The notes below the pieces were generated by a model. That model worked only from the letters and a program-made list of their open reading frames with translations. It did no database searches and was not told the DNA's origin. The position numbers were made by a program, and so were the translations under genes. This document shows, one piece after another, positions 3,239 through 36,508 of a stretch of DNA of 64,000 nt (position 1 is the stretch's first letter; the number at the start of each line of letters is the position of its first letter). Source of the DNA: an uncultured Gammaproteobacteria bacterium (GTDB lineage Bacteria > Patescibacteriota > Patescibacteriia > UBA9934 > GWF2-40-263); NCBI GenBank assembly GCA_964402425.1, contig CAYOCD010000002.1, forward strand, positions 27,612 through 91,611, written 5' to 3'.

Positions 3239-4597
3239 ATGTTGCTCGAAAAAAACTATTTTCATTTTGTTGGAATCGGCGGAATCGGCATGTCCGCCCT
3301 TGCCAAGTTTTTGGTATCGAAAGAAAAACACGTCACAGGGTCAGACGTCCATGATTCTGAGATGGTTCAAGACCTGAATAAAAAAGGTATTCAAGTAAAT
3401 ATCGGTCATGACACCTCGCATGTTCTCGATGGTGTCGAGGTTGTGATTTATTCGTCTGCTATTCCTTCTACCAATCCAGAAAGAATCACCGCTCGCGAAC
3501 GAGGAATTCCTGAGGTTTCTTACGCCCAGTTCCTTGGCGAAGTTTCAAAGAATTTTTCAACGATTGTTGTAACAGGGACGCATGGTAAAAGTACAACAAC
3601 AGCACTGCTTGGACTTATGCTCGAGTCAGCTGGTTATGATCCAACTGTACTTGTCGGATCCTTTGTTCCAACATTTCCCGATAAGAACTTACGCATTGGC
3701 AAAGGCAGATTCTTTGTTGTTGAAGGATGTGAGTATCAAGCAAACATGTTGAACTTACACCCCGAGATGATTGTGCTTACAAACATTGAAGAAGACCACC
3801 TCGACTACTATCGTGACATCAATCACATCAGAGACACATTCCAAATTTTCGCTGATAAATTGATTGGCAAAGGAATGATGGTGATGAACGCAGATGATGC
3901 TGAATCCATGAAATTAAAGGTAGAGCGGCCTATTACGTATGGATACGAAAACAATGCGGACTATAACGCTTTAGATCGATTGACAGAAAAAGGTGAACAG
4001 ACGTTTTCGGTTCGACGAGAAGAGGTGATTGGTAGATTAAAGTTGATTATTCCTGGAACGCACAATGTCATGAACGCAATTGCGGCAACGGCGGCTGCAA
4101 TGGAACTTGGTGTTCCTTTCGAAACGTGTGCAAGAGTTCTTGAAACATTCCCAGGAATCTGGCGCAGGTTTGAACGTGTTGGAACATGGCGAGAAGCAGA
4201 CGTTATTTCAGACTATGGTCATCATCCAACCGCGGTGGAGAAAACTGTCAGCGCCGCACGCGAGTTTTTCCCAGGCCGAAGAATCGTGCTCTGTTTTCAG
4301 CCACACCAACACTCCCGAACGAAGTCGTTATTCGATGGATTCGTCCATGCACTTCAGCTTGCAGATGAAACAGTAGTCGCAGAAATCTATGACGTCGCCG
4401 GCAGAAACGAAGAACACGAAATGTCGTCAAGGCTGATTGTAGAGAAAATAAAAAAAGAAAACCCAGGAGCCCACGTCATGTTCTCGGCAAATTTTGACAC
4501 GGTAAGATCTGCTCTCGAGCAAGTTGTCCGATCGAATGATGTGTTGATAGTGATGGGAGCGGGGGATATTGATTGTATTGCGCGGGAGATTTGTTAA
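3239..4597 (+). CDS. murC: UDP-N-acetylmuramate--L-alanine ligase
   Basis: N-terminal Rossmann motif FVGIGGIGMSALA, Mur ligase P-loop TGTHGKSTTTALL, 452 aa. Confidence 0.85.
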   Translation: MLLEKNYFHFVGIGGIGMSALAKFLVSKEKHVTGSDVHDSEMVQDLNKKGIQVNIGHDTSHVLDGVEVVIYSSAIPSTNPERITARERGIPEVSYAQFLGEVSKNFSTIVVTGTHGKSTTTALLGLMLESAGYDPTVLVGSFVPTFPDKNLRIGKGRFFVVEGCEYQANMLNLHPEMIVLTNIEEDHLDYYRDINHIRDTFQIFADKLIGKGMMVMNADDAESMKLKVERPITYGYENNADYNALDRLTEKGEQTFSVRREEVIGRLKLIIPGTHNVMNAIAATAAAMELGVPFETCARVLETFPGIWRRFERVGTWREADVISDYGHHPTAVEKTVSAAREFFPGRRIVLCFQPHQHSRTKSLFDGFVHALQLADETVVAEIYDVAGRNEEHEMSSRLIVEKIKKENPGAHVMFSANFDTVRSALEQVVRSNDVLIVMGAGDIDCIAREIC

Positions 4598-5788: not shown

Positions 5789-7540
5789 ATGGAGGCAAAC
5801 GTGAATCTGTCCAATTGTTCTTTTGCGAGACATGGATTTTTTGCCATCTTGTTGTCCGCTTGTTCAGACGACACTCTGACACCAGATCCGACTCTTCACT
5901 CGACAATCGTTGATGGTCAAAAAATGGATTCAGGGTCAGAACAAGACATTACACCAGATGTAGATGTGCCAGACGCGTCTGAAGTCCAAGAGGTTGATCA
6001 GTCTGTTGATACGACGTCCGACGTTTTTGTCTGCAAAGACAATGCTTCGTGTGACACGAAAAATCCTTGCACACAAGATTGGTGTAATCTTGGGACGGGT
6101 GAGTGCCAATACACACCTCTTCCAGACAAGGTTTGTACGGACGGTGATGCGTGCACAGTGAATGATATCTGTACTTCTTCCGGCCAGTGCATTGGCGCAA
6201 AGCAGGTGGTGTGTAATGACAACAGTCCTTGCACAAAAGATTCTTGCAAACAGTTGTCTGGCTGCGATTATGAAGCCGTAGACGCGATTTGTTCGGATGG
6301 AGATGTGTGTACCAAGAATGATTCTTGTGTGGCGGGTCTCTGTCTTGGGACGAAATTTGTCTGTGATGATGGTCTTGATTGCACGGAAGATTCTTGCGAC
6401 AAGAACTTGGGTTGTTCAACAGTGAAGCTGAACAATTTACCTTGCAATGACAACTCTGCCTGCACGATCAATGATCTGTGTGATAAGGGATTTTGCAAAG
6501 GAGCGAGCATTAATTGCTCGGACGCAAATCCTTGCACGCAAGATGTGTGTGATAAGGTTTCGGGATGTTTTTCAGCACCCACCTCAAACGGTTCCAAGTG
6601 TACTGACGGAAACGCCTGCACGATCAATGACAATTGCAAGGATTCCGTATGTATCAGCGGTTCCCAAAAGAACTGTGATGACAGCAGTGTTTGTACAAAC
6701 GATTCGTGCGATGCAGCAACGGGGGAGTGTCTCCATATCGCGGTTGTTGGTGTGCACTATTGCGTTGATAACAACGCTTGCACATACGATGATACGTGCA
6801 AACTTGGTGTCTGCACGGGAAAGATTCTTCAGTGCTACGACGGTCTTGATTGCACGCAAGATTCTTGCGACAAAGGAACGGGATGTTCCTTCATGATTCA
6901 AGACAAGGCGCCTTGTAATGATGGGAACGCTTGTACAATTGGTGACACTTGTGCAAAAGATAAGTGTTTTGGAAATGTAAAAACCTGTGAAGACAACAAC
7001 GACTGTACGATCGATACGTGTGATCCGGCCGTTGGTACATGTAATTTCACAGCAAATGACGGCTATTATTGTAGTGATGTGAACGCCTGTACATCAGGTG
7101 ATGTCTGCAAAGGGACAAAATGTGTCGGTGTTACCATCATCTGCAACGATGGAAATCCTTGCACATCCGATAGTTGCAATCAAAAGACAGGCTGTGTTTT
7201 CTTGCCGACACCAAATGCGCCGTGTGATGATGCAAATCTTTGTTCGACAGACGACATCTGTCAGCAGACGGTATGCAAATCAAAACCGGTTGTGTGTGAT
7301 GATGGAAATACTTGTTCGACGGATACGTGCAATAAGTCGACAGGAAAGTGTGAATTCAAAATCTTTAATGACAGTTATTCCTGCAATGATGGGGATCTCT
7401 GTACAACCGCTGATGTGTGTCTATTCGGCGAGTGCAAGGGGTCGATTAATATGTGTAACGATAACAACCCCTGCACAATCGATGCGTGCAACCCGAAGGA
7501 TGGAAAGTGCGCAAACACAAAAGTCCCCAATTGCATCTGA
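5789..7540 (+). CDS. secreted lipoprotein built from about 19 tandem Cys-rich repeats (C-x-D-G/N-x-C-T-x-D-x-C-x3-5-G-x-C)
   Basis: N-terminus has a signal peptide with an LLSAC lipobox; the rest is repeated units such as CTDGDACTVNDICTSSGQC and CNDGNPCTSDSCNQKTGC. High Cys/Asp/Asn/Thr content and no TM segments. Confidence 0.7.
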   Translation: MEANVNLSNCSFARHGFFAILLSACSDDTLTPDPTLHSTIVDGQKMDSGSEQDITPDVDVPDASEVQEVDQSVDTTSDVFVCKDNASCDTKNPCTQDWCNLGTGECQYTPLPDKVCTDGDACTVNDICTSSGQCIGAKQVVCNDNSPCTKDSCKQLSGCDYEAVDAICSDGDVCTKNDSCVAGLCLGTKFVCDDGLDCTEDSCDKNLGCSTVKLNNLPCNDNSACTINDLCDKGFCKGASINCSDANPCTQDVCDKVSGCFSAPTSNGSKCTDGNACTINDNCKDSVCISGSQKNCDDSSVCTNDSCDAATGECLHIAVVGVHYCVDNNACTYDDTCKLGVCTGKILQCYDGLDCTQDSCDKGTGCSFMIQDKAPCNDGNACTIGDTCAKDKCFGNVKTCEDNNDCTIDTCDPAVGTCNFTANDGYYCSDVNACTSGDVCKGTKCVGVTIICNDGNPCTSDSCNQKTGCVFLPTPNAPCDDANLCSTDDICQQTVCKSKPVVCDDGNTCSTDTCNKSTGKCEFKIFNDSYSCNDGDLCTTADVCLFGECKGSINMCNDNNPCTIDACNPKDGKCANTKVPNCI

Positions 7541-7682: not shown

Positions 7683-9293
7683 ATGAACGCTCTTTCCAAT
7701 CGGTTGCACGGTTCCATTATTTTTCTTGCGTTCGTTGCCGTCGCTTGTTCTCCCGAGTCTCTTGTGGAATCGACACAAGATGCTGTTGCGATGGATGAAA
7801 TGATTACAGAATCTGATGCCTTTCCTTCTGTAGACTCAGAAACATCTTTTGAAATTTCGGACACAGGATCCAGTCCAGGTGAATTTGGTTATCCCTGTGT
7901 TTCAAATGCGGATTGTAATGTTGGATATTGCACAGAAACAAGCAAAGGAAATATCTGTTCGAAAGCTTGTGTTACGGAATGTCCAGAAGATTTTGTTTGT
8001 ACAGGAGTTTCGGCGGGCGGATCCGATATCATGTTTGTCTGTCTTTCAAAGTTTGTTCGGATCTGTGATCCGTGTCACGAACACAAAGATTGCAACACAA
8101 ATGACAAGATCGGGAATCTTTGTCTGGGTGTTGGTGGAGGTGGTCGATTTTGCGGGGTGCAATGTAATCCCGCAAACGATGATAAAGATTGTCCGACCAG
8201 CTTCACGTGCAAGTTTGTGACGGATGGAAAAACGGGATTGTCTGGCAATCAATGTGTGCCATCAAAAAACGCAACATGCAGCTGCTCAACGCGTGCAATT
8301 CAACTCGCGCTTTCAACAGACTGCGAAAATAAGAATGTTTTTGGTGCTTGTTATGGACAACGCGTTTGCAAACCTGAAGGACTCACAAATTGCATAGGAC
8401 AAATTCCAGAGTCAGAAAGCTGTAATAAGCTTGATGACAACTGTGACGGGGAAATCGATAACATCGATCCGAAATCGGTTGGAGGAACCTGTCAGCAGTC
8501 CAATGAATTTGGAACATGCTTTGGTGTCATTAGTGGGTGTGACAAAGGGAATCCCATCTGTAACGCATCTGTGCCGCAACCGGAAGCTTGTAACGGTAAG
8601 GATGATGATTGTGATGGTAAAACAGATGAGGGGTTGTGCGATGACGGAAATGTTTGCACAACAGATCTCTGTAATACGGACGGCTCCTGCAAGCACATAA
8701 AAATTTCAGGAACGGCTTGTGATGACGGAAATGTTTGCACAACGTTTGAACAATGTTCATCTGGTGTTTGCATGGGTGGAACGGTGTTAAATTGTGATGA
8801 CGCCGATAGCTGCTCTGTAGATTGGTGTGATCCGTTCACAGGATGCAATCATAAACCAGCTTCAGACGTAGGATGTCTTGATGACGGCAATGTCTGTACC
8901 CAAGACGTGTGTTTGAATGGGAAATGCACACATCCGAAAGCAAAAGATGGTGGCAGCTGTCTTGATGAGGGGAACGTCTGTACAACAGATGTTTGTGACA
9001 ACGGTGAGTGTTCGCATATTTCAAATTCAAAGCCGTGTGACGACGGAAATCAATGTACGCTAAACGACTCTTGTAAAGACAAAGCATGCATCATCTCTCT
9101 GCCGAAAGTTTGCAATGATGGTAATGCCTGCACGGTTGATAGTTGCGAATCGGCAAAAGGGTGTCTCTTTAAACCAAACCCATTCTCGAGTGATGGTACG
9201 GGTGTTCCATGTCCTGACGACGGAAACGCTTGTACAGAGGATTTGTGCAAAGGCTCCATTTGCGCACATCTTCCAATTCCGGGATGTAACTAA
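7683..9293 (+). CDS. secreted Cys-rich repeat (lipo)protein, paralog of 5789..7540, with an N-terminal MopE-like CxxDDDCDG region
   Basis: Signal peptide MNALSNRLHGSIIFLAFVAVAC. The N-terminal half carries CNKLDDNCDGEIDN and CNGKDDDCDGKTDEG (putative metal-binding motif). The C-terminal half repeats CDDGNVCTTDLCNTDGSC-type units, the same repeat as the upstream gene. Confidence 0.7.
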   Translation: MNALSNRLHGSIIFLAFVAVACSPESLVESTQDAVAMDEMITESDAFPSVDSETSFEISDTGSSPGEFGYPCVSNADCNVGYCTETSKGNICSKACVTECPEDFVCTGVSAGGSDIMFVCLSKFVRICDPCHEHKDCNTNDKIGNLCLGVGGGGRFCGVQCNPANDDKDCPTSFTCKFVTDGKTGLSGNQCVPSKNATCSCSTRAIQLALSTDCENKNVFGACYGQRVCKPEGLTNCIGQIPESESCNKLDDNCDGEIDNIDPKSVGGTCQQSNEFGTCFGVISGCDKGNPICNASVPQPEACNGKDDDCDGKTDEGLCDDGNVCTTDLCNTDGSCKHIKISGTACDDGNVCTTFEQCSSGVCMGGTVLNCDDADSCSVDWCDPFTGCNHKPASDVGCLDDGNVCTQDVCLNGKCTHPKAKDGGSCLDEGNVCTTDVCDNGECSHISNSKPCDDGNQCTLNDSCKDKACIISLPKVCNDGNACTVDSCESAKGCLFKPNPFSSDGTGVPCPDDGNACTEDLCKGSICAHLPIPGCN

Positions 9294-20889: not shown

Positions 20890-22962
20890 ATGCAAACCTG
20901 GAAAACGAAACGGAAGTCTCAAAATACGCAAAAAACCCATAAACCATGGAAGGCGCGTGCGGCAACAATTGTGTTATTGCTCACGACCGTCATTGTTGGA
21001 TTTTATGATTTTCCACTTGCGTGGAATAAAACAGCTGGGTTCATAAAAGAAACCATCAATGTTTCATTGCCAACACGCAACGAACAAGCGTATCGTCTTG
21101 GTCTTGATTTGCAAGGTGGAACACACCTTGTGTATGAAGCGGACATGAAAGATATTTCGGAAAAGGAACGTGAAAACGCACTCGCAGGTGTACGTGATGT
21201 TATTGAACGTCGTGTTAATGCTTTTGGTGTTTCCGAGCCGCTTGTACAAACAACATCCACAGGAGGGGTCTATCGCGTTATTGTAGAGCTTGCGGGTGTT
21301 TTGGATGTGTCTGATGCCATTAATCAAATCGGAGAAACACCTGTTCTTGAATTTAAGGAACAGGGTGCAGAGCTTGATGTTAAACCAACTCCTGAAGATG
21401 AAAAGAAACTTCAAGAGTTGTTAAAAGCGGATCGTGCGGCCGCACAAGCTGTTCTTGCTCGTGCGCAAAAAGGAGAAAATTTTGAAAAACTTGTAGAAGA
21501 AGTCAGTGGAGATCCAACAAAAGCACAATCAAAAGGAATTATTGAAAAGCTCACAGCAGAATCTGTTCAGTATCCACAAATAGCAAAGGCGATTTCACAA
21601 AATCGACCTAGGGTTGGATCTGTATTTTGGAAAACGGTAGAAGAAGAAAATTCCATTGAAATTGTTAAGATATTAGAGAATACAAAAGTAAATAACATGC
21701 GCCTTTCGCACATTCTTATTTGTTTTGAAGGAAAACAAGGGTGTACAAGCAATACTTCCGCTTTAGATGCTAACATTCAAATTTCAAATTTGAAAAAAGA
21801 AGCAACAGCGGCAAATTTTGCAGAGCTCGCAAAAAAGAATTCAACTGATCCTAGTGCTGCATCAAATGGCGGAGATCTTGGATTTGCTACTTCAGAAACA
21901 TACGTTCCATCATTTGCGGCTGCAGCAGAGGCATTGGCCGTTGGTCAAATTTCAGATGTTGTCGAAACAGATTTTGGATATCACTTGATTTACAAGCAAG
22001 AACAAAAAGTATTGCCGGCGTATAAGGTGCAACACATCAGTATGAAGCGCTCGAGCATGTTGGACATCTTGCCACCTGCCTCTCCTTGGAAAAACACACA
22101 ACTTTCCGGAAAACAACTCGAAAATGCCGTTGTTGAATTCGATCCAAACAGTGGAACTCCAAATGTTGGAATTACATTTGATAAAGAAGGGGGAGACTTG
22201 TTTGGAACGTTAACAGCAGCAAACATTGGAAAACCAATTGCTATTTTTCTTGATGGAGAACCTATTTCGACACCAGTTGTTCAAGCGGCTATCTATGGCG
22301 GTCGAGCTGTGATTACAGGAGACTTCACATTAGATGAAGCAAAAATTTTGGCGCAACGATTAAACGCCGGTGCCCTTCCTGTTCCAGTTACTTTGCTTTC
22401 GCAACAAACGGTGGGTCCTACACTTGGAGCCTCCTCGCTTCAAATGAGTATTACAGCCGCTCTCATCGGATTTGCTCTTGTTGCAGGTTATATGATTGCG
22501 TATTACAGACTTGCAGGGTTGTTTTCTGTGATCGCCTTGATTCTGTATGCTTTTTTGAACCTTTCAATTTATCGCATCTTTGATGTCACTATCACCCTTT
22601 CTGGAATTGCAGGATTTATTCTGTCTCTTGGAATGGCTGTGGATGCAAACGTGCTCATTATTGAACGCATGAAAGAAGAAATCTCTGGCGGACGAGATCT
22701 CGCATCTGCCATTCAAGAAGGGTTTGCGCGTGCATGGCCAGCCATCAGAGATGGAAACGTCTCTACACTCGTTGTTGCGCTTGTGCTTTACATCTTCAGT
22801 GAAAGTTTCATTCGTGGATTTGCGCTCATGCTTGGAATCGGTGTTGTTGTGAGTTTGTTTACAGCCATTACAGCAACACGTGTTTACATGACAACCATTT
22901 TCCCAAAACGAGCAGTACTTATGGCTTGGCTTTCCGGTCTCTCTAAACCAAAAAACGTATGA
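20890..22962 (+). CDS. secD: protein translocase subunit SecD with an inserted tandem parvulin-type PPIase module in periplasmic domain P1
   Basis: SecD P1 head and base motifs (GLDLQGGTHLVY, VYRVIVELAGV, IAIFLDGEPISTPVVQAAIYGGRAVITG, LNAGALPVPV) and C-terminal TM helices. An insertion of about 240 aa between them contains a canonical parvulin domain: NFAELAKKNSTDPSAASNGGDLGF...DFGYHLIY. Confidence 0.8.
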   Translation: MQTWKTKRKSQNTQKTHKPWKARAATIVLLLTTVIVGFYDFPLAWNKTAGFIKETINVSLPTRNEQAYRLGLDLQGGTHLVYEADMKDISEKERENALAGVRDVIERRVNAFGVSEPLVQTTSTGGVYRVIVELAGVLDVSDAINQIGETPVLEFKEQGAELDVKPTPEDEKKLQELLKADRAAAQAVLARAQKGENFEKLVEEVSGDPTKAQSKGIIEKLTAESVQYPQIAKAISQNRPRVGSVFWKTVEEENSIEIVKILENTKVNNMRLSHILICFEGKQGCTSNTSALDANIQISNLKKEATAANFAELAKKNSTDPSAASNGGDLGFATSETYVPSFAAAAEALAVGQISDVVETDFGYHLIYKQEQKVLPAYKVQHISMKRSSMLDILPPASPWKNTQLSGKQLENAVVEFDPNSGTPNVGITFDKEGGDLFGTLTAANIGKPIAIFLDGEPISTPVVQAAIYGGRAVITGDFTLDEAKILAQRLNAGALPVPVTLLSQQTVGPTLGASSLQMSITAALIGFALVAGYMIAYYRLAGLFSVIALILYAFLNLSIYRIFDVTITLSGIAGFILSLGMAVDANVLIIERMKEEISGGRDLASAIQEGFARAWPAIRDGNVSTLVVALVLYIFSESFIRGFALMLGIGVVVSLFTAITATRVYMTTIFPKRAVLMAWLSGLSKPKNV

Positions 22963-23852
22963 AATTAAACATTGTTAAACATCGTAACGTTTGGTACTCC
23001 GTTTCAGCGTTTCTGATCCTTGTGAGTGTTATTGTTCTTTTTGCCTGGAAACTTCAGCCAGGAATTGATTTTACAGGCGGTTCATTACTTGAAGTCTCTA
23101 TTGCTTCACATCCAACACATACTGAAGTGCAAGATGTTGTCGTGAAAGCAGGCTACGCAGAAGCGATCGTTCAAATTTCTGATAAGAATGTTCTTGTTCG
23201 CACACAACCATTGAGTGAGGAACAACATCAGTCTGTACTTGCAGCGCTTAAAACGGCTTTTGGAGATACAACCGAGATGAGATTTGATTCAATTGGTCCT
23301 GTGATTGGAAATGAATTGCGCCGTACTGCTTTGTTTGGAATCGGAGCGAGTTTGATTCTCATTGGTTTTTACATTTCATGGGCTTTTCGCGGGGCTGGAG
23401 ATTTTATTTCCTCAAAAAAGATTGCTCTTCTTACAGTTGTTAAAACATTTCATGATGTGTTGATTTCTATCGGATTCTTTGCAATCCTCGCACATTTTTA
23501 TGGATATGAAATGGACACGGCGTTTGTGGCAGCTGCTCTTACTATTTTGGGATATTCCATTAACGATGGTGTTGTTGTGCTCGATCGTACTCGTGAGAAC
23601 TTGAAAAACAAAATCTCTACACATTTGAGTGTGGTTGTTGATAAGGCGATTGAACAAACGCTCGCAAGATCCATTAATACATCAGTGACTGTGTTTCTTG
23701 CATTGCTTTCTGTTTATCTTTTTGGAGGAGATACTACGCGCCCTTTCGCTCTTTTGCTTCTTATTGGTGTTGCGGTTGGTACGTATTCTTCCGTATTCAT
23801 TGCATCTCCAGCGCTTGTAACGTTGGAGAATTGGGGAAAAGGAAAAAAGTAA
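22959..23852 (+). CDS. secF: protein translocase subunit SecF
   Basis: Family N-terminus KHRNVWYSVSAFLI, GIDFTGGSLLEV and C-terminal TM bundle; ATGA overlap with secD. Confidence 0.85.
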   Translation: MKLNIVKHRNVWYSVSAFLILVSVIVLFAWKLQPGIDFTGGSLLEVSIASHPTHTEVQDVVVKAGYAEAIVQISDKNVLVRTQPLSEEQHQSVLAALKTAFGDTTEMRFDSIGPVIGNELRRTALFGIGASLILIGFYISWAFRGAGDFISSKKIALLTVVKTFHDVLISIGFFAILAHFYGYEMDTAFVAAALTILGYSINDGVVVLDRTRENLKNKISTHLSVVVDKAIEQTLARSINTSVTVFLALLSVYLFGGDTTRPFALLLLIGVAVGTYSSVFIASPALVTLENWGKGKK

Positions 23853-23886: not shown

Positions 23887-23929
23887 AAAATCCCGAGTTT
23901 CAAACAAGAAACTCGGGATTTTTTCTTTT
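23887..23929 (+). terminator. rho-independent terminator after secDF
   Basis: 15-bp stem aaaatcccgagtttc/gaaactcgggatttt, then tttcttttg. Confidence 0.65.
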
Positions 23930-24020
23930 GTGTTTTTTTGTTATACTGTTTGTGATTCCTTTTCGTTCAATTCCTCTTCTGTTTGTTTCAGAAGAGGTGA
24001 TCCTTCTTGATTTTTCGTCT

Positions 24021-25658
24021 ATGCTTCCCATGCTTGCGATTCAGATCATTGATCAATCCGCGCAATCTTCTCTTCCGTTGATTTCATCGTCTTTTTTTAA
24101 TCAACCGATTGACGTCATTTTTTTTAATCTACTGCTTTGGTTTGGGTGGATTCCAATCTTTTTTACGTTACTTTGGGGATTTTCAGAGTTGTGGCTTGCG
24201 GAGCGTCAAGCAGTTTTTGCGGCAAAACAAAAATACATTTTTCTTGCTGTTGATGTTCCTTCCATGACAGAGCAAACACCAAAAGCTTTGGAAAATTTGT
24301 TTTCTGTTTTATATACAGCAAAATCAAATCCAACGTTTAAGGAAAAATGGTTTGATGGAAAATTCATGCCAACGTTCTCTTTTGAAATTGTTTCAGAAGA
24401 AGGATACATGCAATTTATTATTCGGACACAAGAAAAATTTAGAGATGTGCTTGAGGCGGGTATTTATGCACAATATCCTGATGCAGAAATGAATGAGGTG
24501 CAAGATTATGCATCAAAAGTTCCTGCGCTTTACCCAAATGAAACATATGACATGTGGGGCGGTGAGTTTACGTTTGATAAAGAATCTTTTTTCCCCATTC
24601 GTACATACGTAGATTTTGAAGATCAAATGACTGGAGAAATTAAAGACCCGCTCGGATATACATTGGAACAAATGTCTAAAATGAGACCTGGAGAACATTT
24701 TTGGTTTCAGATGATTTTACAGCCATCAAACAATGATTGGAAAAAGGCTGGAGTTGCATACGTAAATAAAACATTTGGTGTTGAAGAGAAAGCGGCAAAA
24801 AAAGGAGAATTTTCTGCTGCGGCAACAACCGTATTTAAACTTCCATTTGAGCTCATAGAACATGCAACAGCTATTGATCTTGCGCCTATTTTTGGGATGG
24901 GCCCAGCAGAAAAAAAAGCGGAAGATCCATGGAAAGCGTTTAAGCTTGGTCCCGCACAACAAGATGAAGCAAAAGCGATCATGCGTAAAACAATCAAGGT
25001 TGGACACGGAGTAAAAATTCGCATTGTCTATTGTGCAAAAAAAGCTGCATACAAAAAGGGGGACCGTGTCACCATGATCAAAGGAATTCTGAATCAATAT
25101 TCACACCTGAATTTGAATTCCTTTAAGATGAACGCACCGTCCGTTCCAAAGGATGATTACTTCTGGCAAAAATGGGATTATGAAAAAAAACAAACTGTTC
25201 TCATGAAAGCTTATCAGGCCAGAAGTTGGTCTGTTGGAGCAAACCCAATTTTCTTGAATGCAGAAGAACTCGCAACGCTTTGGCACTTTCCAACCATTAG
25301 CACAAAGGCTCCGCTTATTAAAAAAGCAGAAGCGCGCCGCGCGGAACCTCCTGTTGGACTTCCTACAACATTTTTGGAAAATACGTTACCAGGCGTGGGG
25401 GACAACGAATTTCCTTCCACACTTCCTGGTTCCGTACCAATGGAACATCATGAATCTGCGGAGTCTCGTGGAGCGGGTACGTATGTTTCCGCAAAAGAAC
25501 CACTTCCAGAATCATTGCCACACGTGAAAGCCCCAACAGAAAGAGGCCGTGAAGAAACAGGGGATGTTCTCCTGTCAAAAAACCGTTTCATGCAAGACAC
25601 ATCTCCTGCAGATGCCTCTGATGAAGATTTATTTACCCCACCTGACTTGCCAGTTTAA
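24021..25658 (+). CDS. hypothetical membrane protein: N-terminal TM helices, large soluble domain, disordered acidic/Pro-rich tail
   Basis: ORF 23928..25658, but its first 90 nt overlap the secF terminator, so the start is placed at ATG 24021 (MLPMLAIQ). Hydrophobic helices IDVIFFNLLLWFGWIPIFFTLLWGF. No known domain. It ends 18 nt before the next ORF. Confidence 0.45.
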   Translation: MLPMLAIQIIDQSAQSSLPLISSSFFNQPIDVIFFNLLLWFGWIPIFFTLLWGFSELWLAERQAVFAAKQKYIFLAVDVPSMTEQTPKALENLFSVLYTAKSNPTFKEKWFDGKFMPTFSFEIVSEEGYMQFIIRTQEKFRDVLEAGIYAQYPDAEMNEVQDYASKVPALYPNETYDMWGGEFTFDKESFFPIRTYVDFEDQMTGEIKDPLGYTLEQMSKMRPGEHFWFQMILQPSNNDWKKAGVAYVNKTFGVEEKAAKKGEFSAAATTVFKLPFELIEHATAIDLAPIFGMGPAEKKAEDPWKAFKLGPAQQDEAKAIMRKTIKVGHGVKIRIVYCAKKAAYKKGDRVTMIKGILNQYSHLNLNSFKMNAPSVPKDDYFWQKWDYEKKQTVLMKAYQARSWSVGANPIFLNAEELATLWHFPTISTKAPLIKKAEARRAEPPVGLPTTFLENTLPGVGDNEFPSTLPGSVPMEHHESAESRGAGTYVSAKEPLPESLPHVKAPTERGREETGDVLLSKNRFMQDTSPADASDEDLFTPPDLPV

Positions 25659-25676
25659 CCAAGGATTTTTTGCCCT

Positions 25677-28178
25677 ATGGGTTACAATCACGATCACGAA
25701 AACGAGGTCAACTATTTTGCGAAGACAAACTTCCGAAATCAAATGACAAAATTTGGTATCAAAACCGACGATCGCCGTCGACACGTCTATGTGATTGGAA
25801 AAACAGGTATGGGTAAAACTGTGCTTCTTGAGAATTTTACCCTTTCTGATATTTACGCGGGGCACGGTTGCTGTTATGTAGACCCCCACGGAGATACGGC
25901 AGAAAAATTGATTAACTACATTCCAAGTTGGCGTATTAATGATGTTGTTTATTTCAATCCGTCTGATGCGGAATACCCAGTCGGGTTTAATATTCTTGAG
26001 GCGGTTTCAGAAAGACACAAACACCTTGTTGCAAGTGGAATGATGGGTGTGTTTAAAAAGATCTGGGAAGACCAATGGTCATCCCGTATGGAATACATTT
26101 TGAACAATACTATTCTTGCCTTGCTTGATAACCAAGGGTCAACACTTCTTGGAATTAACCGAATGTTATCAGACGCGGACTATCGCAAGCGGATTGTTTC
26201 AAATGTGACAGATCCTGTGGTGAAGCAATTCTGGTTGAGAGAGTTTGCTTCATATAATGAAAAGTATGCTCAGGAAGCCGTTGCTCCAATTCAAAACAAA
26301 ATCGGACAGTTTTTGTCTGCGTCTGTTATCAGAAACATTGTTGCGCAGGTGAAATCTAGTATCAACATTCGTGAAATCATGGATTCCGGAAAGATTTTTA
26401 TTGTGAACTTGTCAAAGGGGCGTATCGGAGAAGACAGTTCTCGATTGCTTGGAGGATTGTTGATCACAAAATTGCAATTGTCCGCCATGGAGCGCGTAGA
26501 CATGCAAGAAAAAGATCGTTTGGACTTTTATCTCTATGTTGATGAGTTTCAAAACTTTGCCGTGGATTCTTTTGCTGGAATTTTGTCAGAGGCGCGTAAA
26601 TATCGTTTGTGTTTGACCATTGCTCACCAGTATATTGCTCAGCTCACTGATGAAGTGCGTGAGGCTGTTTTTGGAAACGTTGGAACGATTATTTCGTTTC
26701 GTGTTGGTTCTCCAGACGCAAAATACATGGAAACAGAATTTGCCCCACGTTTTTTGCCAGAGGACATTATTAATTTGCCAAAGTATAACGTGTACTTAAA
26801 GTTGCTCATTAACGGAGTTACAAGTCAGCCATTTTCCGCTATCACCCTTCCTCCTATTTCTCAAAAGACGGATTCTGAAGAGCGTGTGATTCGCGTTTCG
26901 CGTGAACGTTATGCAAAAGAACGCAGTTTTATTGAAAATCAAATTTTGACATGGAGCGGAATGGGGGATATGGATGTTGATACCATGCTGGCAGAAGCGG
27001 AAGAAAAAAAGAAATCTGACAAAGTGGCTGCAAAAGATGCAAAGAAACCAAAATTTGAGTACGACTGTTCGCGTTGTGCAAAAAAGATGGTGCTTCCCGT
27101 TGAACTTGATAGATCCCGTCCTATTTACTGTGAGGATTGTATTGAGATTGTTCGTGAAGAGAAAAATAATCGTGCTGGAAAAGGAGGGGGTAAGCCAGCG
27201 GATACACGAAATCTTCCACCAAAAGTTCTGCCAAAAGAGGCACCACCTCGCGCGATAAATGAAGGAAAAGAGATGGAGGATCGCCGCCTTCCGGATGAAC
27301 CTACTATTTCACTTTCAACATTGATGCCAAAAGGGGTAGAAGAAAAAAAGGAAGTCATAGAGCAAAAAAAGGTAGAACCAACTCCCGCACCCGCTGTTCA
27401 AAAAATAGAGCCAGTTCTTATTCCACCTGCTGGGTCCCATAGAGTATCTGTTGCCGAACCACAGAAAGCACCTGTCATTGCTCCAAAACAAGCTGTTGAA
27501 TCACCCAAAATAATGGAGTCAATTGTTCGCGTTGAACAAAAACCTATCGTGACAGAGTCTCGCATAACATTTGATCAGCCAGTAAAACACGTAGAGGTGC
27601 AACAAACAGAATCTCGTTCAGCTACCATCGAAAAAACGCCACCAACGACATCAGAACAGCCAAGAGTTGTTCCGCAACCCGTTCGTTCCATGGGAAATTT
27701 ATCTCGTACACCCGCGCAAGCTTCTAATGAATTTTCGTCGACTGGATTAATCACCCCGACAAGGGAAGGTGAAAAGCGAAAGCGAAAGCGTAAACGTAAG
27801 AAAAAAACAGGAGACAGTTCCGTAAATAGAGAATCAATCACCGTACAACTTTCCCAACCGGGACAGACGATTTCTCTTAAGAGTCTGCAAGAACAAAAAA
27901 GACCAGAGTGGACTGAACAATCAAGGAAAGAACAGACTTCTGTCGTCACAAAACTAGTTGAAAAAACAGTTGAGCAATCAATAGAACAACCTGTCGCAAA
28001 GACTGTTGAACCTATTGTAAATAAACAGACTTCTGTTGTTATAAAACAAGTTGAAAAAACAGTTGAACAACCAACGGAACAGCCCGTTGCCAAGTCTGTT
28101 GAACCTGTTGTTCAAAAACCAATTGAGCAATCTACAAGTGGTAAATTATACATTGGCCAGAGTATTAAGTTTGAATAG
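25677..28178 (+). CDS. FtsK-HerA superfamily ATPase resembling type IV coupling proteins (VirD4/TraD/TraG-like), with a C-terminal zinc ribbon and repetitive charged tail
   Basis: Walker A VIGKTGMGKTVL, Walker B LDFYLYVDEFQNF, and ARKYRLCLTIAHQYIAQL (coupling-protein C-terminal signature). Zinc ribbon CSRCAKKMVLPVELDRSRPIYCEDC. KRKRKRKRKKK tract and two 31-aa tandem repeats. Confidence 0.6.
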   Translation: MGYNHDHENEVNYFAKTNFRNQMTKFGIKTDDRRRHVYVIGKTGMGKTVLLENFTLSDIYAGHGCCYVDPHGDTAEKLINYIPSWRINDVVYFNPSDAEYPVGFNILEAVSERHKHLVASGMMGVFKKIWEDQWSSRMEYILNNTILALLDNQGSTLLGINRMLSDADYRKRIVSNVTDPVVKQFWLREFASYNEKYAQEAVAPIQNKIGQFLSASVIRNIVAQVKSSINIREIMDSGKIFIVNLSKGRIGEDSSRLLGGLLITKLQLSAMERVDMQEKDRLDFYLYVDEFQNFAVDSFAGILSEARKYRLCLTIAHQYIAQLTDEVREAVFGNVGTIISFRVGSPDAKYMETEFAPRFLPEDIINLPKYNVYLKLLINGVTSQPFSAITLPPISQKTDSEERVIRVSRERYAKERSFIENQILTWSGMGDMDVDTMLAEAEEKKKSDKVAAKDAKKPKFEYDCSRCAKKMVLPVELDRSRPIYCEDCIEIVREEKNNRAGKGGGKPADTRNLPPKVLPKEAPPRAINEGKEMEDRRLPDEPTISLSTLMPKGVEEKKEVIEQKKVEPTPAPAVQKIEPVLIPPAGSHRVSVAEPQKAPVIAPKQAVESPKIMESIVRVEQKPIVTESRITFDQPVKHVEVQQTESRSATIEKTPPTTSEQPRVVPQPVRSMGNLSRTPAQASNEFSSTGLITPTREGEKRKRKRKRKKKTGDSSVNRESITVQLSQPGQTISLKSLQEQKRPEWTEQSRKEQTSVVTKLVEKTVEQSIEQPVAKTVEPIVNKQTSVVIKQVEKTVEQPTEQPVAKSVEPVVQKPIEQSTSGKLYIGQSIKFE
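27934..28117 (+). repeat. tandem direct repeat, 2 x 92 bp, inside the coding tail of the ATPase
   Basis: cagacttctgtcgtcacaaaactagttgaaaaaacagttgagcaa... recurs from 28026 with about 85% identity. It encodes TSVVTKLVEKTVEQSIEQPVAKTVEPIVNKQ / TSVVIKQVEKTVEQPTEQPVAKSVEPVVQKP. Confidence 0.7.
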
Positions 28179-28184
28179 AACGCC

Positions 28185-28838
28185 TTGCCTATGAATCGCG
28201 TGGAATTTAAAACGGCGGATGGAATTGAAATTATTGGATCGTTTCGCACACCCGCAACACCAACGCATGCGGCGATTTTATTACACATGATGCCAGCAAC
28301 AAAGGAAAGCTGGGATGCATTTGCAGAACAACTTGAACGGGTGGGTTTCGCATCAATCGCCATCGATGAACGTGGGCATGGAGAAAGCACGATGAACGGA
28401 ACACTCGACTATCAAACATTCGGAGAACATCAACAGCAAGCAAAAATTGAAGATGTTCGAGCGGCGTTTAAATTTCTGGAACAAGAGGGCTTTGCAGAAT
28501 CACAGATCGTTTTGATTGGCGCATCCATTGGTGCGAATCTTGCTATTCAGTTTATGCTGGAACATCCGTTGATAACAACCGCAATTGCACTATCGCCAGG
28601 ATTAAATTATCGCGGAGTGAGAACAGATGAATTTATCCAACAGCTTCACAAAGGTCAGCGCGTCATTTTGGTTGCCTCTGACGATGATGATCGAGATTCT
28701 GCGCAAAGTTGTCGTACACTTCACGCTCTGAATCCTGCGCAGACAGAACTCATAGAAAAACAGGGTCTCGGACATGGAACAACGATGTTTACAAAAGAAC
28801 CAACTCTTATGACAGAGTTGGTTCAACAGTTCCTCTAA
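28185..28838 (+). CDS. alpha/beta hydrolase
   Basis: Nucleophile elbow LIGASIGAN (GxSxG) and HGES; 217 aa. Confidence 0.6.
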   Translation: MPMNRVEFKTADGIEIIGSFRTPATPTHAAILLHMMPATKESWDAFAEQLERVGFASIAIDERGHGESTMNGTLDYQTFGEHQQQAKIEDVRAAFKFLEQEGFAESQIVLIGASIGANLAIQFMLEHPLITTAIALSPGLNYRGVRTDEFIQQLHKGQRVILVASDDDDRDSAQSCRTLHALNPAQTELIEKQGLGHGTTMFTKEPTLMTELVQQFL

Positions 28839-34673: not shown

Positions 34674-35240
34674 ATGCTCCTTTTTCCGCTCGTTATTCAA
34701 CATCGTCATGTGCATTTGTCGAAGATTGACCTTCGACAATTATTTGGTGATGAAAAATCGTTAGAGATTGAATTTGAATTAGAGCAGAAAGGACAATTTC
34801 TCTACAAAGAAACCGTGAATGTGGAGGGTAAAACAGGCGTGATTGAATCGGTGCGTGTTTTGGGTCCGTGTCGTAGCAAAACACAGGTCGAACTTTCTGT
34901 CACTGATGCATTCGCTATTGGCTTAAAGGCGCCGGCTCGCTTGTCTGGAGATACGCTTCGGGCCGCATCATGTAAACTCGTTGGTCCAGAAGGTTCTGTT
35001 CGAGCTGTGGCTTCTGTTATTGTTCCAGTTCGTCATTTGCACTGTTCAGATCGGGTTGCAAAAAAACTTCACTTGAAAAACCATCGCGTGGTAACATTAA
35101 GGCACGCAGAGAAGCCAGACGTTGTTTTAACACATGTGTTTGTTCGTGTTCATCCAACGTTTGCTCCTGAATTACATCTTACATCTGATGAAGCTGCACA
35201 TTACTGGCTTCATTCCGGTGATTTATTTGAAGTATGTTGA
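34674..35240 (+). CDS. PduL-like phosphate acyltransferase family protein (PF06130-like)
   Basis: Duplicated RHxH-type motifs (IQHRHVHLS and VPVRHLHCS), characteristic of the two-repeat PduL fold. It starts 3 nt after the GT2 gene and overlaps the next gene. Confidence 0.45.
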   Translation: MLLFPLVIQHRHVHLSKIDLRQLFGDEKSLEIEFELEQKGQFLYKETVNVEGKTGVIESVRVLGPCRSKTQVELSVTDAFAIGLKAPARLSGDTLRAASCKLVGPEGSVRAVASVIVPVRHLHCSDRVAKKLHLKNHRVVTLRHAEKPDVVLTHVFVRVHPTFAPELHLTSDEAAHYWLHSGDLFEVC

Positions 35241-36508
35241 AACGTTTTTCGTTCACCGCCATCTTTGCATTCGTTGTTTTTTTAGTTCCGACGTTTGCGT
35301 ATGCAGCAACAGCTGATCTCAAAGTAAGTGCTACGGATATTCGTTTTTCAAAGTCTACGTTAATTGTAGGTGATGCAATACGTGTTTATACAAAAGTTCA
35401 AAACATTGGAACGGTTGATATTGTTGGATATGTAACTTTTTACCAAGGGAGTTCGGTTATTGCAGAGCCGCAAGTGATTTCTGTGGTCGCAGGAAGTGAT
35501 CCGGAAGAAGCGTTTGTTGACTTTGTTGTTCCTGATGGGCCGTTTAATCTCAGAACTGTTATTAGCGGCACAAAACCAGCAGATGAGAACTTAGATAATA
35601 ATGTTGCTATCACTGGAATTTACACCCCTATTCCAGACAAGGATCGAGATGGAATCAAGGATGATTCTGATAATTGTCCAACGATTACAAACCCAAGCCA
35701 ATCAGATTTGGATAAAGATAGTGTTGGTGATGCGTGTGATGATGATATCGATGGCGACGGTCTGACAAACGGTGTAGAAGCAGAACAGGGGACGAATGCA
35801 CAAGCAAAAGATACGGACGGAGATGGAGTCAGTGATGCCCAAGATGTTTACCCACTTGATCCAAAACGTTCCGTATTAGAAAAACCTGTTCCGCCAAAAA
35901 TTGTAGAAAAACAGGTGATGCCAAAACCAGAAATACAAAACACAAAGGTATTGAGTGTGAATACAAAATCTGAAACAGTTTCTAATACGTCTGTTTCAAA
36001 TACAGTTTCACCTTCACTTATTGCCACACCCACACCGTCATTAGACACAGCAGAAGTCGTTTCGATGGAGTCACTGAAAGGGGGTGTATCTCCAAATGCG
36101 GTGTTTTCTTATGAAAAAAGTTCTTGGAACACATTTGTTTTTCGTTTAGTTGCACCTGTCCAGGATCGTTTCGTTTATGAATGGAATTTTGGAGATGGTG
36201 TTCATTCAAGCAAATCAGATGTTACACATACGTATGCACAAGCTGGATCATATTTAGTAACACTCAAAACAACAGATGAAGCAGGGGTTGTTTCAGAAGA
36301 ATCCGCAGAAGTGCATGTCGCGTTTTTTACGTTTTCAAATCCGTTGATTATCGCCTTGCTTACACTGCTCGGAATTGTATTTGTTGGAATTTGTGTGGCA
36401 TTGTTTAAGCTGAAAACAACAAAACGACCAAGAAAAAAAGGGGTCGTAAGTGAATCAGAGACGTCAGAAGAGCAAACGTTAAAACAAATTTTTGTCAAAG
36501 AAGAGTAG
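35234..36508 (+). CDS. cell-surface protein: signal peptide, CARDB-like domain, thrombospondin type-3 Ca-binding repeats, PKD domain, C-terminal TM anchor
   Basis: Signal peptide FAFVVFLVPTFAYAA. TSP3 repeats DKDRDGIKDDSDNCPTITNPSQSDLDKDSVGDACDDDIDGDG. PKD signature YEWNFGDGVHSS...HTYAQAGSYLVTLKTTD. TM IIALLTLLGIVFVGICVALF plus a basic tail. Confidence 0.65.
   Translation: MLKRFSFTAIFAFVVFLVPTFAYAATADLKVSATDIRFSKSTLIVGDAIRVYTKVQNIGTVDIVGYVTFYQGSSVIAEPQVISVVAGSDPEEAFVDFVVPDGPFNLRTVISGTKPADENLDNNVAITGIYTPIPDKDRDGIKDDSDNCPTITNPSQSDLDKDSVGDACDDDIDGDGLTNGVEAEQGTNAQAKDTDGDGVSDAQDVYPLDPKRSVLEKPVPPKIVEKQVMPKPEIQNTKVLSVNTKSETVSNTSVSNTVSPSLIATPTPSLDTAEVVSMESLKGGVSPNAVFSYEKSSWNTFVFRLVAPVQDRFVYEWNFGDGVHSSKSDVTHTYAQAGSYLVTLKTTDEAGVVSEESAEVHVAFFTFSNPLIIALLTLLGIVFVGICVALFKLKTTKRPRKKGVVSESETSEEQTLKQIFVKEE

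Follow-up and report, generated by a model that had tools for sequence, protein, structure and literature searches.

The type IV coupling proteins (T4CPs) TrwB, VirD4 and TraD are P-loop motors that normally carry their own transmembrane (TM) domain in the same chain and are typically linked to relaxase and mating-pair-formation genes. They have C-terminal extensions, which in TraD and DotL recruit partners. VirB4 (TrwK of plasmid R388) is a single chain with a membrane-proximal N-terminal domain (NTD) followed by a T4CP-related ATPase domain, and the NTD of R388 VirB4 docks the ATPase to the inner-membrane complex. Here we describe two adjacent genes, hereafter A and B, in a 64-kb piece of DNA (the window) that carries housekeeping genes and belongs to the chromosome of Candidatus Uhrbacteria (Patescibacteria). 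Judged by its sequence, the product of B is a divergent coupling-protein-type ATPase without a TM segment, and the product of A is a membrane protein of family DUF8128. We consider it highly probable that the two are halves of one membrane-anchored ATPase in the VirB4/VirD4 branch of the FtsK-HerA superfamily.

B shares with TrwB, VirD4 and TraD the P-loop motor, the Walker A and B motifs, an R...Q..QL motif and a C-terminal extension. It differs from them in having no TM domain in its chain and no relaxase or mating-pair-formation linkage in the window or, by a search of low sensitivity, in related flanks. The pair also differs from classical T4CPs in that the ATPase is accompanied by a VirB4-NTD-like protein. 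A and B together are collinear with VirB4, but VirB4 is one chain whereas A-B is split; moreover, B matches T4CP models and not the VirB4-associated Pfam models AAA_10, P-loop_TraG and CagE_TrbE_VirB, none of which matched A either. A has its own TM helix where VirB4 has a VirB3 partner, and no VirB3-like gene was found beside A-B.

Two-partner arrangements of this kind have been described. For the TraI/TraJ pair of pIP501, a small membrane protein from another gene has been proposed as the anchor of the TM-less coupling protein (PMC12857230). A-B resembles TraI and TraJ as a two-partner coupling protein with an anchor from a separate gene; TraI, however, is small with two predicted TM domains, whereas A has a conserved VirB4-NTD-like domain of ~360 aa which relatives carry in one chain with the ATPase. 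Stand-alone proteins related to the N terminus of VirB4 are encoded just upstream of an ATPase in pSK41/pGO1 (TrsD) and in Patescibacteria (TrsD-VirB4 pairs; PMC12102498). A is likewise stand-alone and just upstream of an ATPase, but TrsD is 227 aa long, partners VirB4 proper and lies near other type IV secretion system (T4SS) genes, whereas A partners a T4CP-type ATPase away from T4SS genes. Comparison of A with pSK41 TrsD gave an hhalign probability of 0.9%, and a broad DUF8128 profile did not match TrsD. Finally, A has a fold similar to that of EccE of the mycobacterial ESX type VII secretion system, which works beside the FtsK-type ATPase EccC. This likeness is one of fold only; other ESX genes are not present here, and the partner ATPase is of another type.

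Products of genes A and B

A previous examination of the window without database searches (the sequence-only reading) had described an open reading frame (ORF) with N-terminal TM helices, a large soluble domain and no recognisable motif, followed by a VirD4/TraD-like ATPase. Both ORFs are present as it described, with the stop codon of A 18 nt before the ATG of B at 25677. The start of A had to be moved. The maximal ORF runs from a TTG codon (23928-25658), but each of 20 homologues of A starts at the equivalent of ATG 24021 (MLPLLAI...), and a hairpin resembling an intrinsic terminator ends just ahead of the TTG. The homologue starts and the hairpin together place the true gene A at 24021-25658, with 545 codons; the hairpin excludes the TTG start and sets the A-B unit apart from the preceding secDF genes. 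Database searches gave 1163 matches for A and at least 8000 for B, which shows that both are real genes and not chance ORFs. A profile built from A and 19 homologues matched 2610 clusters (50% identity), and for 871 of these the match was below 1e-30.

The large soluble domain of A stood up to analysis, whereas the TM helices came down to one segment, residues 32-55 (VIFFNLLLWFGWIPIFFTLLWGFS), recognized by hydrophobicity and modelled within a long N-terminal helix (30-69). Basic residues R62, K70 and K72 follow this segment, so that the large domain is predicted to be cytoplasmic by the positive-inside rule. The structural model of A contains an alpha/beta domain (~70-250 and 310-425) with predicted local distance difference test (pLDDT) scores of 80-88; one loop and the tail, which starts at residue 442, are disordered. 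When the model was searched with Foldseek, seven TrwK chains ranked first, and the ~360-aa cytoplasmic domain has the VirB4-NTD/EccE fold. A had been read as a separate anchor for the ATPase; it does appear to be one, but with this domain it is not merely an anchor. PDB sequence searches with A, as a single sequence or as a profile, found nothing.

The statement that A has no recognisable motif was not borne out. Pfam family PF26449 (DUF8128) is precomputed on 120/120 of the A homologues listed, including one at 93% identity (P0001); an A orthologue in locus record L086 is labelled DUF8128, and UniRef also uses this name. DUF8128 membership of A was thus assigned through the precomputed PF26449 matches of its homologues. 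The Pfam and NCBIfam scans of A itself gave no match, since the Pfam library that was scanned lacked PF26449. No paper mentioning DUF8128 was found, and the main text of Wang et al. 2023 (PMC10633639) contains none of the words VirD4, T4CP, VirB4 and FtsK. Beyond the domain, A carries the conserved motif RAEPPxGLP, whose equivalent in fused relatives (see below) lies just ahead of the ATPase domain, and a sequence P-P-(N/D)-L-P-hydrophobic that forms the very C-terminus in 45/70 related loci, with NLP-hydrophobic variants in most others. Conserved stretches of A also include TEQTPKAxEN, IYAxYPDAE and WHFP, the last ahead of RAEPPxGLP.

All the features that the sequence-only reading had picked out in B are present: Walker A, Walker B, ARKYRLCLTIAHQYIAQL, the zinc ribbon, the basic KR tract and the 31-aa repeats. 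Its placement of B among VirD4/TraD-like proteins is also upheld, as the Pfam models TrwB_AAD_bind (37.8 bits against a cut-off of 20.5; 1.4e-9; residues 27-342) and TraG-D_C (25.1 bits against 22; 1.8e-5) both score above their cut-offs. The relevant matches in PDB sequence searches were TrwB and DotL only, over the P-loop region, which makes these the nearest solved relatives. NCBIfam models scored below cut-off: the VirD4-like CD1115 model (8.7e-11, 41.3 bits against 250), SXT TraD (9.6e-11, 40.8 against 366), TOL TraD (25.1 against 647) and F-type TraD (14.7 against 521). These scores, all far under the equivalog or subfamily cut-offs, put B outside the characterised T4CP subfamilies. By hydrophobicity no TM-like segment is predicted in B, where Walker A already begins at residue 41. 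The identity of B as an FtsK/SpoIIIE DNA translocase was rejected, as there was no FtsK_SpoIIIE match in Pfam and no FtsK chain among the PDB sequence matches.

Pfam zf_Tbcl_2 and the NCBIfam CxxC-x17-CxxC model both match residues 460-489 of B. The tail beyond the zinc ribbon is lineage-specific, from 67 to 522 aa long across loci, with a variable repeat-bearing middle, and its length correlates weakly with that of the A tail (Spearman 0.29, p 0.055). In DNA, the KR tract contains AAAGCG three times (27773-27790). In the Uhrbacteria-like clade, A and B both have conserved short C-terminal motifs beyond their disordered tails; in a second clade B ends in (D/E)(I/V/L)FPW. The structural model of B was poor (pLDDT 50.7; residues 112-236, which separate the Walker A strand from that of Walker B, are modelled as a helical block) because all the homologues used are at least 76% identical (76-95% among 21). 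Foldseek with this poor model returned HerA, Cag-beta and TrwB, then the C-terminal domain of VirB4, at E ~1e-2, which is consistent with the T4CP-type assignment. Alignment of the B profile to the single sequences TrsK and TrsE with hhalign was too weak to discriminate, the alignment being low in diversity.

Conservation of the pair and its relatives

The homologues that best match A and B come from Candidatus Uhrbacteria and other Patescibacteria. Among species-representative genomes, at least 582 have a relative of A, and the 80 best loci were examined, one of which (L053) comes from the complete or near-complete genome OZ246408.1. B directly follows A in 75/75 of these loci whose contig extends far enough; the gene-neighbourhood census that the sequence-only reading had proposed thus found the pairing to be constant. 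The median gap between A and B is 16.5 nt across loci, and overlap is frequent. Identity across the 75 loci is 61-98% for B, 37-84% for A and 46-81% for SecD, and B is more conserved than SecD, SecF or MnmA of the same loci. The gene order secD-secF-A-B...mnmA...alaS is conserved across Patescibacteria, even in a distant lineage in which A has 438 aa and B 558 aa. DUF8128 is also present in Kuenenbacteria. At least this lineage of the "orphan" coupling-protein homologues of Patescibacteria is therefore always paired with a DUF8128 membrane partner.

This order suggests an association with the Sec machinery, in which A-B would be a SecDF-associated ATPase for export or for quality control of membrane proteins, since SecD-SecF immediately precede A in most of the 80 loci, as they do in the distant lineage. 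We regard it as very improbable. Between secF and A the window has a strong terminator hairpin, and in several loci 1-5 kb or a gene for a sigma70_r4/HARE-HTH protein lies between them. The downstream genes mnmA and alaS are equally syntenic, which indicates a general conservation of gene order. The fused relatives stand in T4SS clusters, not Sec clusters, and we know of no member of the T4CP/VirB4 ATPase families that acts with Sec.

That A-B was left behind by an integrated conjugative element or prophage, or belongs to a defence system, is also scarcely credible. Relatives do occur on plasmids and phages, and residues 33-373 of B match mad8 (1.4e-15), a PADLOC model from the MADS defence system, with weak matches of B to HerA models as well; the mad8 match probably reflects a shared T4CP-like NTPase. 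However, the GC content is even and unremarkable across the window, which contains no tRNA or Rfam match, and in which no integrase, relaxase, VirB4, VirB6, pilin or other mad gene was found. A has no PADLOC match, and tblastn with A gave no match on plasmids. The chromosomal position is kept in at least 80 species-level genomes under strong purifying selection. The sequence-only reading had placed the pair outside any obvious conjugative element, and the housekeeping content of the window and the conserved synteny agree with this, as does tblastn with VirB4, VirB6-like, PrgI and relaxase queries, a test of low sensitivity, which gave no match in 1.22 Mb of related flanks. In all likelihood A-B of Patescibacteria is a domesticated, vertically inherited pair of chromosomal core genes.

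Outside Patescibacteria, the two halves are found in one chain. The 812-aa plasmid protein OG928_RS01290 (WP_331738717.1) of Embleya aligns with the core of B at residues ~412-780 (32.6% identity, 4e-59), and A is collinear with its N-terminal 400 aa, although similarity at the level of A is weak (hhalign E 6e-6). Its 120 best relatives are mostly Streptomyces proteins of ~800 aa under the name 'type IV secretory system conjugative DNA transfer family protein', and 118 of the 120 have PF26449 and PF10412 in one chain. A TM segment is present at the N terminus of the Embleya protein, which is encoded together with PrgI (VirB3-like), a VirB4-like ATPase (P-loop_TraG, AAA_10, TraC_F_IV), a relaxase-like Replic_Relax protein and NlpC/P60, and this cluster is a monoderm-type conjugative T4SS. 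Like A and B taken together, the fused proteins of Streptomycetaceae run in the order N-terminal TM segment, DUF8128, T4CP-type ATPase (PF10412, PF12696); unlike A and B, they are one polypeptide, lie inside a conjugative cluster, and have no zinc ribbon or long repeat tail. The claim that conjugative links are absent thus holds for Patescibacteria and not for these relatives.

A fused form also exists in a virus. In the PHROG family phrog_5156 (function unknown), A is covered at profile positions 25-198 and B at 405-805. Its member gp156 of Bacillus phage G (825 aa) was recognized by a broad DUF8128 profile, with 62.7 bits in hmmsearch and a probability of 98.9% (E 2.6e-16) in hhalign, and is 29% identical to B (3e-46). 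Like A plus B, gp156 joins a DUF8128-like part to a T4CP-like part; unlike A, it lacks a TM segment at its N terminus. This viral protein adjoins (record L081, 774-6338) gp153, which is TrbL/VirB6-like, and the VirB4-like ATPase gp155. Jumbo phage G thus has a T4SS-like module of gp153, gp155 and gp156. Other Bacillus phages, CP-51, Shanette and SP-10 among them, encode ATPases with a weaker likeness to B.

The split form recurs on a haloarchaeal plasmid, where a 399-aa A-like gene overlaps a 1034-aa T4CP-like gene (hhalign 97.1%, 1.3e-10). The VirB4-like neighbours of the fused relatives do match VirB4 models, unlike A and B. The anchor of the ATPase had been read as a separate upstream protein, and this is strongly supported by the 75/75 linkage and by the fusion of A and B counterparts in the T4CPs of Streptomycetaceae, which have their own TM segment, and in gp156. 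It is very likely, then, that A-B is a split version of the TM-DUF8128-T4CP proteins of actinobacterial conjugative T4SS clusters. The sequence-only reading had named beforehand two outcomes that would speak against it, namely best matches to canonical TraD/VirD4 within an integrated plasmid, and an upstream ORF that is unrelated or never co-occurs; neither was found. Among plasmid-borne proteins, the one closest to the B core (40.6% identity) is a 395-aa ATPase on the plasmid NZ_CP081110 of the alphaproteobacterium Sulfitobacter (record L083, 5953-7140); it stands alone among transposases, with no A-like gene adjoining.

Proposed mechanism and role

A mechanism can be proposed by analogy with TrwB hexamers and with R388 VirB4 (structures 1e9r, 7o42 and 8rtd). 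A would contribute the single TM helix and the cytoplasmic domain of VirB4-NTD/EccE fold, and B the TrwB/VirD4-like P-loop motor. Subunits of A would assemble next to the membrane into a collar, onto which B would dock as a hexameric ring on the cytoplasmic side, and ATP hydrolysis at the B-B interfaces would move a polymer through or along the ring. The zinc ribbon, basic tract and tail motifs may recruit a substrate or an adaptor, as TraD and DotL do through their C-terminal extensions. Single TM helices arranged in a ring are unlikely to make a channel, so that one would be expected from a partner. In this scheme we infer the formation of the A-B complex, its oligomeric state, topology and substrate, and the translocation of DNA or protein that the sequence-only reading had also envisaged.

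All characterised relatives of A-B sit in T4SS-type clusters, and this favours a coupling role with a chromosomal T4SS-like apparatus. We propose tentatively, at a confidence that falls just short of even, that A-B is the coupling or substrate-recruiting ATPase of such an apparatus (VirB4, VirB3, VirB6 and VirB2-like) encoded elsewhere on the chromosome, with DNA or nucleoprotein as the most likely cargo. A survey of 3035 Patescibacteria genomes reported T4CP homologues in 2918, 5713 in all with 148 of them near virB4, and VirB4 in 2417; it also noted that in ordinary systems, too, t4cp genes often lie far from virB4 (PMC12102498). By our own arithmetic, ~2 T4CP copies per genome with a detection of ~80% each would make ~96% of genomes positive. 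The counts therefore fit universal presence of both families and make no case for independence from T4SSs.

Several observations weigh against this coupling role and the kinship behind it. The relation of A to VirB4 is one of fold only: A profiles gave no significant hhalign match to TrwK (R388), TrsE and TrsD (pSK41), gp155 of phage G or the VirB4-like protein of Embleya, and hmmsearch of DUF8128 profiles against TrwK, TrsE, TrsD and PDB sequences found nothing. The conservation of B far exceeds what is usual in plasmid T4CPs, and a housekeeping function fits this better than coupling. No T4SS, relaxase or pilin gene was found in the window or, by the low-sensitivity tblastn, in the 1.22 Mb of related flanks. 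In S. epibionticum, the T4CP homologue, which need not be an orthologue of B, is reported not to be essential while T4SS genes are, and exaptation has been raised (PMC12102498).

The same observations would be accounted for if this split membrane-anchored T4CP-type ATPase had been exapted to a T4SS-independent housekeeping task, such as handling DNA at the membrane in division or uptake, or extracting or exporting a polymer. The extreme conservation of B, above that of SecD, SecF and MnmA, its fixed place with A in the block secD-secF-A-B-mnmA...alaS, the flanks without adjoining T4SS genes, the few T4CP homologues near virB4 and the reported non-essentiality of the S. epibionticum homologue all agree with such a task; the zinc ribbon and KR tract, from their sequence, may bind nucleic acid. 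Exaptation is the strongest of the alternatives, but we nevertheless think it rather unlikely. Those relatives outside Patescibacteria that have T4SS-type neighbours all adjoin VirB4-like or other transfer genes, and the distance from virB4 is common in ordinary systems. Nor is it obvious how a ring with six single TM helices would form a channel by itself. Replacement of FtsK by A-B was rejected as a simple form of the idea, since Saccharibacteria already have FtsK according to published papers.

On balance we narrowly favour the whole explanation, in which a split ATPase works by the proposed mechanism in T4SS coupling. A more far-reaching proposal, which we consider improbable, is that DUF8128-T4CP proteins are a deep lineage of coupling proteins that kept a VirB4-type NTD, a living intermediate between VirB4 and classical VirD4. 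In Patescibacteria they would then form a near-universal T4SS-independent housekeeping translocase, for instance of host-derived DNA or another polymer essential to episymbiosis, and the tail motifs would be a new recruitment code.

Surroundings of A-B and significance of the pair

The features of the locus are collected in Table 1. The window also carries glyA, murC, murB, secA, secD, secF, mnmA, era, alaS, fmt, priA, clpB, gltX and alr.

Table 1. Positions in the window of genes A and B, their sequence features and their upstream neighbours
Feature	Position	Strand	Remark
secD (with peptidyl-prolyl isomerase insert) and secF	20890..23852	+	Conserved upstream neighbours of A-B; context, functional link not implied
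Intrinsic-terminator-like hairpin, 15-bp stem and T tract	23887..23922	.	Between secF and A
Gene A, DUF8128 (PF26449) bitopic membrane protein, 545 aa	24021..25658	+	Very probably the VirB4-NTD-like half of a split coupling protein
Single TM-like segment of A, residues 32-55, VIFFNLLLWFGWIPIFFTLLWGFS	24114..24185	+	By hydrophobicity; basic R62, K70, K72 after segment
RAEPPxGLP conserved motif of A, residues 440-448	25338..25364	+	Just after folded domain
C-terminal motif of A, TPPDLPV	25635..25655	+	End of ~95-aa disordered tail
Gene B, TM-less VirD4/TrwB-type P-loop ATPase (by sequence), 833 aa	25677..28178	+	Core residues 1-~440, then zinc ribbon and disordered tail
Walker A of B, GKTGMGKT, residues 41-48	25797..25820	+	Invariant in 22 sequences
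Walker B of B, FYLYVDE, residues 284-290	26526..26546	+	
ARKYRLCLTIAHQYIAQL of B, residues 306-323	26592..26645	+	T4CP-type arginine/glutamine motif within TraG-D_C match
CxxC-x17-CxxC zinc ribbon of B, C464, C467, C485, C488	27066..27140	+	In 63/70 related B proteins
Basic tract of B, KRKRKRKRKKK, residues 700-710	27774..27806	+	Within disordered K/E/V/P-rich tail
Tandem repeat in B tail, 93 nt (31 aa)	27931..28111	+	1.9 copies, 84% matches
C-terminal motif of B, GKLYIGQSIKFE	28140..28175	+	G.L..GQ.I.F(D/E) in Uhrbacteria-like clade

SecD (20890-22962, 690 aa) contains at residues 274-369 a parvulin-type peptidyl-prolyl isomerase domain (Pfam Rotamase, 1.3e-28) that separates SecD_1st from the P1 head subdomain. 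Through this insertion a foldase is built into the Sec accessory subunit; in related loci SecD is conserved over its full length. Downstream of B, a gene for an alpha/beta hydrolase (28185-28838) begins after 7 nt, with no terminator predicted in between; it lies directly downstream of B in some related loci and is absent from most. In the related record L013, a 72-aa fragment encoded upstream of secD (4033-4248) is 32% identical to the P-loop region of B. Two adjacent ORFs of the window (5789-7540 and 7683-9293) have Dicty_CTDC cysteine-rich repeats (1.9e-36 and 4.4e-19), and a third (35234-36508) has thrombospondin type-3 and PKD repeats; all three probably encode surface proteins. Many records of related metagenome-assembled genomes of Patescibacteria, among them L005, L010, L013 and L020, bear the title 'uncultured Gammaproteobacteria bacterium' (TPA_asm), which conflicts with their gene content and closest relatives.

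A-B is not a new kind of machine, and what it does in Patescibacteria is proposed here from its relatives. The fused form was already annotated as a T4SS protein, and DUF8128 was already a catalogued family. We found no prior description of the obligate pairing in Patescibacteria, of the relation between split and fused forms, or of the VirB4-NTD/EccE fold of DUF8128, which now gives a first structural annotation to a family of ~2600 clusters at 50% identity. The finding also bears on the divergence of VirB4 and VirD4. Patescibacteria are a huge and barely cultivable branch, nearly all of which encode "orphan" coupling-protein homologues whose role had been left open (PMC12102498); at least the lineage of them described here comes with a membrane partner, and together the two very probably form a single anchored ATPase.

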